Shown in pieces: positions 13,801 to 13,962 of a stretch of 51,799 nucleotides of DNA (within the stretch, counting starts at the first letter, position 1; every line of letters starts with the position of its first letter). The stretch is from Candidatus Babelota bacterium (GTDB lineage Bacteria > Babelota > Babeliae > Babelales > Babelaceae). The notes under the pieces were generated by a model, which did no database searches, was not told where the DNA came from, and saw nothing but the letters and a program-made list of their open reading frames with translations. The position numbers and the translations under genes are program-made. The stretch spans positions 7,713-59,511 of the forward strand of contig DNBB01000031.1 in assembly GCA_003484685.1 (NCBI GenBank). Direction: 5' to 3'.

Positions 13801-13962
13801 TCACTTCATCTGCTCGCACCCTTGCAAACATTTTTCGCGCTGCCAGCTTTTTTGAATCTGTTTGCAACCCTTTTTACACAGATCCTTCTTCCACGCACCT
13901 GCCTGTAAGCCGCTTACCAGAGCGAGAAGGCTCAAACCGTACATACAATTTTTAATGTTCAT
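13801..13962 (-). CDS. small secreted Lys-rich twin-CX3C peptide (53 aa), not in the ORF track
   Basis: ATG at 13962 lies 7 nt after aaggag. The translation is MNIKNCMYGLSLLALVSGLQAGAWKKDLCKKGCKQIQKSWQREKCLQGCEQMK*. I translated it by hand, and the frame fits the flanking track ORFs. Confidence 0.6.
   Translation of the reverse strand: MNIKNCMYGLSLLALVSGLQAGAWKKDLCKKGCKQIQKSWQREKCLQGCEQMK

Follow-up and report, generated by a model that had tools for sequence, protein, structure and literature searches.

The alpha-hairpinins are defined by the motif CX3C-X4-20-CX3C, two antiparallel helices, and the disulfides C1–C4 and C2–C3 (PMC11591084, PMC7191063). The plant members and vicilin-buried peptides, including EcAMP1, VhTI, BWI-2c, Tk-AMP-X2, VBP-8, and the leaders of Ara h 1, Jug r 2, and Pis v 3, were the best structural matches of the predicted model of the bacterial mini-protein described here. 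The small Tims (Tim8, Tim9, Tim10, Tim12, and Tim13; family zf-Tim10_DDP) are ~10-kDa subunits that form hexamers; they have antiparallel helices and two nested disulfides formed in a periplasm-derived compartment, and their reduced form can bind Zn. The CS-alpha/alpha peptides, represented by the scorpion kappa-hefutoxins, combine the motif with a hairpin; they are of animal venom origin and weakly block K+ channels through a functional dyad. Literature searches for bacterial alpha-hairpinins or bacterial twin-CX3C proteins yielded plant and mitochondrial work only.

The Dependentiae, which parasitize protists, are widespread but have almost entirely escaped cultivation, and most of the proteins with which they interact with their hosts are ORFans. 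The cultured members are diderm and live as intracellular parasites of protists; Chromulinavorax destructans possesses a periplasm, and ~44% of its genes, many of them ORFans, encode signal peptides (PMC6561590). The window analyzed here (the whole 51,799-nt stretch of DNA) came from a Dependentiae (TM6, Candidatus Babeliaceae) bacterium, whose assembly G000 was 0.74 Mb in size and 83% complete. It harbored a mini-protein gene with the following features:

13801 to 13962, minus strand: twin-CX3C mini-protein gene of 53 codons, with stop TGA at 13801–13803, orthologues P0002 and P0003, and a coding-frame substitution pattern
13969 to 13974, minus strand: Shine-Dalgarno sequence AAGGAG, abutting the TAA of the 428-aa gene (13977–13975), 6 nt from the ATG
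13900 to 13962, minus strand: predicted Sec signal peptide (residues 1–21), cleavage after LQA, based on sequence features and AF2 helix 4–19
13804 to 13899, minus strand: mature peptide (residues 22–53), with predicted helix 21–34, turn 35–38, and helix 39–50
13864 to 13893, minus strand: internal repeat 1, WKKDLCKKGC (W24–C33), pattern W-x-[KR]-[DE]-x-C-x2-G-C, present twice per orthologue
13816 to 13845, minus strand: internal repeat 2, WQREKCLQGC (W40–C49), second copy of the same pattern

The translation of the minus-strand ORF 13801–13962 was MNIKNCMYGLSLLALVSGLQAGAWKKDLCKKGCKQIQKSWQREKCLQGCEQMK. A first-pass annotation had given the position and translation of this ORF, and both were exact on re-translation, as was its twin C-x3-C motif with an 11-residue spacer (C29-x3-C33-x11-C45-x3-C49). 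The ribosome-binding site required revision: AAGGAG was present as claimed, but it abutted rather than overlapped the upstream stop, and its spacer was 6 nt instead of 7 nt. The TAAAAGGAG-N6-ATG junction was identical in G000 and in the same-genus genome G001. The ORF had been described as unlisted solely because of the size cut-off of that annotation; it did fall below this cut-off, but the ENA, Logan, JGI, and NCBI gene callers had already called it or its orthologues, leaving them unnamed.

The N-terminal region displayed the parts expected of a Sec signal peptide, namely a basic n-region with K4, a hydrophobic 11-residue stretch with a Kyte-Doolittle mean of 2.1, and LQA/G at the cleavage site (the slash marks the predicted cut); the ending LQA/G or VHA/G was also used by the neighboring 181-aa family. 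A signal peptidase I gene was present in G000 and G001, and the plausible signal peptide proposed at first pass is supported at the level of sequence. Across the three orthologues, the signal peptide changed faster than the mature part, as is usual for signal peptides. The mature 32-mer of the window contained nine K/R and three D/E (net charge +6), in agreement with the earlier description of it as strongly basic, but this strong charge was not kept, both orthologues having only +3.

The W-x-[KR]-[DE]-x-C-x2-G-C pattern, a feature absent from the first-pass annotation, occurred as two copies 15 to 16 residues apart in all three orthologues, with Gly preceding each second Cys and Trp plus a basic and an acidic residue at each end. 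Judged from its sequence, the mature peptide is an internal duplication of this unit, which would give the hairpin a pseudo-twofold symmetry. The Cys motif alone was not beyond chance in this genome: CX3C-X4-20-CX3C was found in 4 of the 6750 ORFs of 30–120 aa in the 740-kb genome versus 0 to 5 in ten shuffled genomes, and the motif combined with a signal-peptide-like N-terminus occurred in none of the ten shuffled genomes.

Three species-level lineages, all belonging to one Babeliaceae genus, were compared: (i) G000; (ii) G001, encoding P0002 (57 aa); and (iii) X3, a third lineage represented by positions 1918–4938 of contig L027 (Logan SRR5011273_108806) and encoding P0003 (54 aa), the same sample holding a G001-type contig as well. 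P0002 and P0003 were exactly the two relatives found by a full HMMER profile scan of 1.84 billion representative proteins. The lineages were ~17% apart pairwise in the 181-aa protein, with synonymous sites saturated. All three peptide frames were open, and the four Cys were invariant through TGT/TGC synonymous changes; 11 to 12 further residues of the mature part were invariant (W, K, K, D, K, G, W, R, E, L, G, and K). The mature-part differences at codon positions 1/2/3 numbered 8/4/18, 8/3/21, and 8/4/12, and pN was ~0.20 versus a pS of 0.64 to over 1 (saturated). The sole mature-part indel shortened the spacer from 11 to 10 residues in X3 and lay in the predicted turn, and the loop was the least conserved part (QKS, QNN, and S-S). 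The third-position excess, the pN below pS, and the Cys kept across three lineages bear out the initial claim of a genuine gene: the ORF is almost certainly real, its frame being under purifying selection, and this judgment derives from conservation and not from the Cys motif. Conservation of the ORF and its four Cys in relatives keeping the flanking genes had been named beforehand as a check, and all relatives retaining the 428-aa gene retained both. Copies of the operon with 99.9–100% nucleotide identity were found on four groundwater-metagenome contigs, on each of which the 53-aa gene was called independently; these four near-identical contigs represent one population and are not independent evidence.

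No homologue outside this genus was detected in any collection searched. The peptide alone matched only itself in a word-indexed search of 5.8 billion clusters, its profile had no match in the genome-contig and viral-contig collections, and a search of metagenome contigs with the 181-aa family returned only the previously known locus of genome G008. A Pfam scan of the peptide at E≤0.1 gave no family, and NCBIfam gave none for all three orthologues. In none of the three lineages did the alternative operon position reveal a second peptide copy or a decayed one. Among weaker candidates, the 539-aa repeat protein P0004 (E 5e-4) was dropped as a relative because it contained no CX3C pairs, and the weak profile matches in G043 and G002 were regarded as noise, one being an out-of-frame stretch in a WD40 gene and the other a frame of 37 codons that lacks a start.

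AF2 modeling with the three-sequence alignment (model m0839fc449061) predicted helices at residues 4–19 (signal peptide), 21–34, and 39–50 with a four-residue turn, a block-mean pLDDT of 87 over residues 31–50, and the four Cys on facing helices. The two-helix hairpin proposed at first pass is what the model predicts, and there is a good probability that the mature peptide folds as a helix-turn-helix hairpin. In a Foldseek search against the PDB, about 5 of the 16 listed matches, including the top three, were CX3C alpha-hairpinins (rmsd 0.7–1.8 Å), and those recovered comprised the Ara h 1 leader, two Tk-hefu peptides, the Pis v 3 leader, VBP-8, and the Jug r 2 leader; the top superpositions had rmsd of 0.7–1.0 Å, and all Foldseek E-values were >1, as can be anticipated when a domain has only ~30 residues. 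A PDB sequence search with the peptide gave chance matches only (E>0.8), and a BFVD fold search gave generic helical matches. The AF2 model of the 181-aa neighbor had a pLDDT of 35.

The peptide resembled the alpha-hairpinins in the motif, the ~30-residue helix-loop-helix, the signal peptide, and the expected C1–C4/C2–C3 staples. Relative to the definition of that group, (i) the peptide contained C-X3-C-X4-20-C-X3-C without adjacent CC; (ii) the antiparallel helix-loop-helix was present at the level of prediction only (AF2; Foldseek E>1); and (iii) a vicilin-type or multimodular precursor was lacking, the peptide being encoded by a stand-alone bacterial gene of 53–57 codons with a single module after the signal peptide. 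It further differed from the alpha-hairpinins in its bacterial origin, in having no sequence homology to them and not being excised from such a precursor, and in its internal duplication, its many conserved non-Cys residues, and its operon link to exported proteins; moreover, the loop that bears the reactive Arg in the inhibitor alpha-hairpinins was not conserved in the peptide.

The small Tims were the analogy drawn in the first-pass annotation, and it held for the motif: as in the small Tims, the twin CX3C was strictly conserved, with an x11 spacer (x10 in X3). It failed for the Pfam match, the size, and the tentacle helices: the peptide had no zf-Tim10_DDP match, its mature size (31–32 aa, with helices of 12–14 residues) was a third of theirs, and it lacked long tentacle helices. 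In addition, it carried a Sec-type signal, whereas small Tims have no presequence and depend on Mia40-dependent trapping. The alpha-hairpinins were closer structurally. A chaperone role had also been suggested at first pass; one of the Tim type is unlikely, since helices of this length could not form tentacles. The likeness to the CS-alpha/alpha peptides likewise consisted of the motif plus the hairpin, with Tk-hefu structures 5lm0 and 7qxj ranking second and third in the Foldseek search, but the peptide had no homology to the kappa-hefutoxins.

The likely disulfide pairing, by analogy with alpha-hairpinins and small Tims, is C29–C49 plus C33–C45, and in the predicted fold the Gly ahead of each second Cys would permit close helix packing. 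The disulfides are what we infer and the weakest link of the reading. DsbA (PF01323) had no match in G000; DsbB (PF02600) had none in G000, G001, G002, or G008; and no complete VKOR was found in this genus, G001 having a fragment only, as against complete VKOR genes in 9 of the other 40 family genomes. The only candidate periplasmic thiol-disulfide oxidoreductase found in G000 was an exported protein that resembles a lipoprotein, has a thioredoxin fold, and carries a CPPC active site (L030 1417–2019, minus strand; G000:C17). Oxidation may be spontaneous or extracellular; alternatively, the thiols may bind metal. The VKOR C-terminal fragment of G001 (82-aa ORF, CLYC) abutted a transposase-like ORF on the short contig L031 (G001:C23:1–2310).

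The mini-protein gene lay in an operon of genes for exported or N-terminally anchored proteins, the surroundings of which were as follows:

13975 to 15261, minus strand: upstream gene, encoding an exported acidic protein of 428 aa that consists of amphipathic repeats plus a C-terminal module; its phyletic pattern matches that of the peptide
13206 to 13751, minus strand: downstream gene, encoding an exported protein of 181 aa whose C-terminal module is common to it and the 428-aa protein and whose mature N-terminus GPWKTE resembles GAWKKD of the peptide
12551 to 13186, minus strand: last operon gene, 211-aa N-terminally anchored protein
15398 to 15598, minus strand: decayed gene of the 116/120-aa short amphipathic-repeat protein, interrupted by an in-frame stop (tblastn E 4e-10 and 5e-08)
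15296 to 15325, minus strand: promoter-like site ahead of the 428-aa gene (TTGAAA-18-TATTTT, with TG), identified only by its match to the consensus, such sites being no more numerous than in shuffles

Within the operon, the minus strand showed no promoter-like site in the gaps between genes, and no terminator-like site separated the peptide gene from either neighbor. In G000 and G001, the peptide gene was located between the 428-aa gene (415-aa in G001) and the 181-aa gene, and its Shine-Dalgarno sequence abutted the stop of the former in both genomes. X3 displayed the different order integrase (tyrosine recombinase)–peptide–116-aa–428-aa–181-aa–211-like, in which the peptide gene came first, 18 nt ahead of the 116-aa repeat-protein gene, and the 428-aa and 181-aa genes had no ORF between them. 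G001 (L028 8282–8644) and X3 had an intact form of the 116/120-aa short repeat gene, which is decayed in the window. The differing order in X3 indicates that the peptide gene was relocated yet stayed within the operon, and in both gene orders it adjoined an amphipathic-repeat gene. The link to exported ORFan neighbors asserted in the first-pass annotation was upheld, the peptide gene being in the same operon in all three lineages despite rearrangement.

The phyletic pattern was equally restricted. The peptide and 428-aa genes occurred together in G000 and G001, and neither was found in the other 39 of the 41 family genomes; they also occurred together on the X3 contig, which is separate from these 41 genomes. 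In G002 (same genus, 95% complete), the block of peptide, 428-aa, and 181-aa genes was missing. This genome (L026/L008, G002:C1:1–3300) retained the integrase and a gene, cut by the contig start, that ended in the shared C-terminal module, and its 211-like gene on the other side of the integrase appeared split into ORFs of 75 aa and 135 aa. G008 harbored two tandem 181-like genes beside an EamA transporter and no peptide gene. Only three independent lineages, all in one genus, were available, so the peptide and 428-aa genes may co-occur through a single gain and not because one depends functionally on the other.

As we picture it, the product would be exported by Sec and cleaved after LQA, leaving a 31- to 32-residue peptide that would fold into a helix-turn-helix hairpin built of two W-x-[KR]-[DE]-x-C-x2-G-C copies. 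Outside the cytoplasm, this small peptide would assist or partner the operon's acidic amphipathic-repeat proteins, which comprise the 428-aa protein and a short paralogue of 116/120 aa. Conserved Trp, basic, and acidic residues on the peptide surface would bind these proteins, and the peptide might exit the cell with them through one of two secretin systems or vesicles. Of the two roles offered at first pass, partner and membrane-active peptide, the partner role is favored by the strict co-occurrence with the 428-aa gene, the repeat-gene adjacency in both gene orders, the coupled Shine-Dalgarno sequence, and the opposite charges (+3 to +6 for the peptides versus −4 to −12 for the 428-aa proteins), and we rate this role, which is read from sequence, as a serious possibility a little short of even. 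The invariant non-Cys residues together with the variable loop suggest a specific binding surface and not generic cationic amphipathicity. Given signal peptidase I and two secretins, export and outer-membrane crossing are plausible. As a whole, a real exported hairpin gene serving as an accessory of the repeat-protein module is the best explanation, and we consider the chances of its being right and wrong to be about equal.

Two large secretin genes lay ~4 kb apart in both genus members (G000:C28:5670–10522; G001:C2:107241–112153), and they suggest that these reduced genomes encode a type II secretion system, a type IV pilus apparatus, or both. The mature 181-aa proteins contained no Cys and the 428-aa proteins one (window 13978–15261 and 13209–13751; L027; L003), which makes the peptide the operon's only Cys-rich product.

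Several other explanations of the same gene were weighed. The released cationic, Trp-bearing hairpin could itself be an effector whose targets are membranes, cell walls, or ion channels, either in the protist host or in other microbes, by analogy with plant alpha-hairpinins and scorpion kappa-hefutoxin-type peptides. The closest solved folds are indeed those of defense peptides and of an engineered peptide resembling hefutoxin; all three orthologues carry a net positive charge, two Trp are invariant, and charge and a Trp matter for the membrane and cell-wall binding of alpha-hairpinins (PMC7191063); two secretins could move folded periplasmic proteins outward, and many ORFan proteins are secreted by Dependentiae (PMC6561590). 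Yet the charge is only +3 in two of the three lineages, many non-Cys residues are invariant where alpha-hairpinins often keep little but Cys (PMC11591084), a free-standing toxin needs no strict linkage to repeat-protein genes, and the family is tiny with no paralogue expansion, so that a host- or competitor-directed effector is unlikely, though it is the chief rival of the partner reading. A mini-protein whose four reduced thiols ligate Zn(II) or Cu(I), as a periplasmic buffer or metallochaperone, is improbable: reduced twin-CX3C small Tims do bind Zn 1:1 (PMC3759932) and the classical disulfide-forming pair was not detected in this genus, but the operon has no metal-related gene (the adjoining ATPase is of P2 type), the peptide has no conserved His, Met, or extra Cys, and both the fold matches and the Gly conserved ahead of each second Cys suit a tightly packed hairpin stapled by disulfides. 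For inhibition of serine proteases in the canonical manner of VhTI/BWI-2c, through a reactive Arg/Lys in the inter-CX3C loop, the Cys motif and predicted fold agree and the G000 loop offers a Lys; that loop, however, is the least conserved part (QKS, QNN, and S-S), with no basic residue in X3, and inhibition of this kind is very improbable.

Mimicry of host twin-CX3C/CX9C intermembrane-space proteins, in which the peptide would be reduced in the protist cytosol and then caught and oxidized by the host Mia40 relay, is slightly less credible still. A partial C-x2-[hydrophobic]-x3-W pattern after C33 was conserved, and we take it not to fit the published intermembrane-space targeting-signal consensus. 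Chromulinavorax remodels the host mitochondrion (PMC6561590), and, if mimicry were true, a Dependentiae parasite would place its own protein inside the mitochondria it depends on for ATP. The least probable of these readings, with hardly any weight left to it, is that the ORF is there by chance or only spaces its neighbors in the operon for translational coupling: the Cys motif alone does occur at chance frequency genome-wide, but the frame has stayed open in three lineages despite saturated synonymous divergence, with a third-position excess and invariant Cys, and the gene was kept after relocation within the operon. A sactipeptide/RiPP hairpin, which would call for a radical-SAM or other maturase gene next to that of the precursor, was set aside, the operon neighbors containing no enzyme domains and the N-terminus being a Sec-type signal and not a leader.

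The modeled hairpin would add a Sec-exported bacterial case to a fold previously described in plant defense peptides, animal venoms, and mitochondria. A mini-ORF has become a defined three-member family with a predicted fold and a candidate partner, a synuclein/perilipin-like (lipid-coat-like) repeat protein, and peptide and partner alike are of a size that allows direct synthesis and biophysical study. If the peptide does pair with the amphipathic-repeat protein, this would open a way to study the coating or remodeling of host membranes by these parasites; the general importance of the family is limited by a distribution confined to one genus.

The peptide and the 181-aa family also displayed a likeness around the predicted cleavage site: SGLQA/GAWKKDL of the peptide resembled SSLQA/GPWKTEI and VLNA/GTWKTDV of the 181-aa family (hhalign probability 65%), the sites concerned being 13662–13727 versus 13873–13935 in the window, 3918–3974 in L027, and 5446–5505 in L033. 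In small-database tblastn searches, the 181-family N-terminus ranked second after the peptide's own orthologue in L027 and best in L033; it ranked lower in L025 and the window, and the likeness was not significant genome-wide. The peptide may have arisen by partial 5′ duplication, or an N-terminal recognition motif may be common to the peptide and the 181-aa family.
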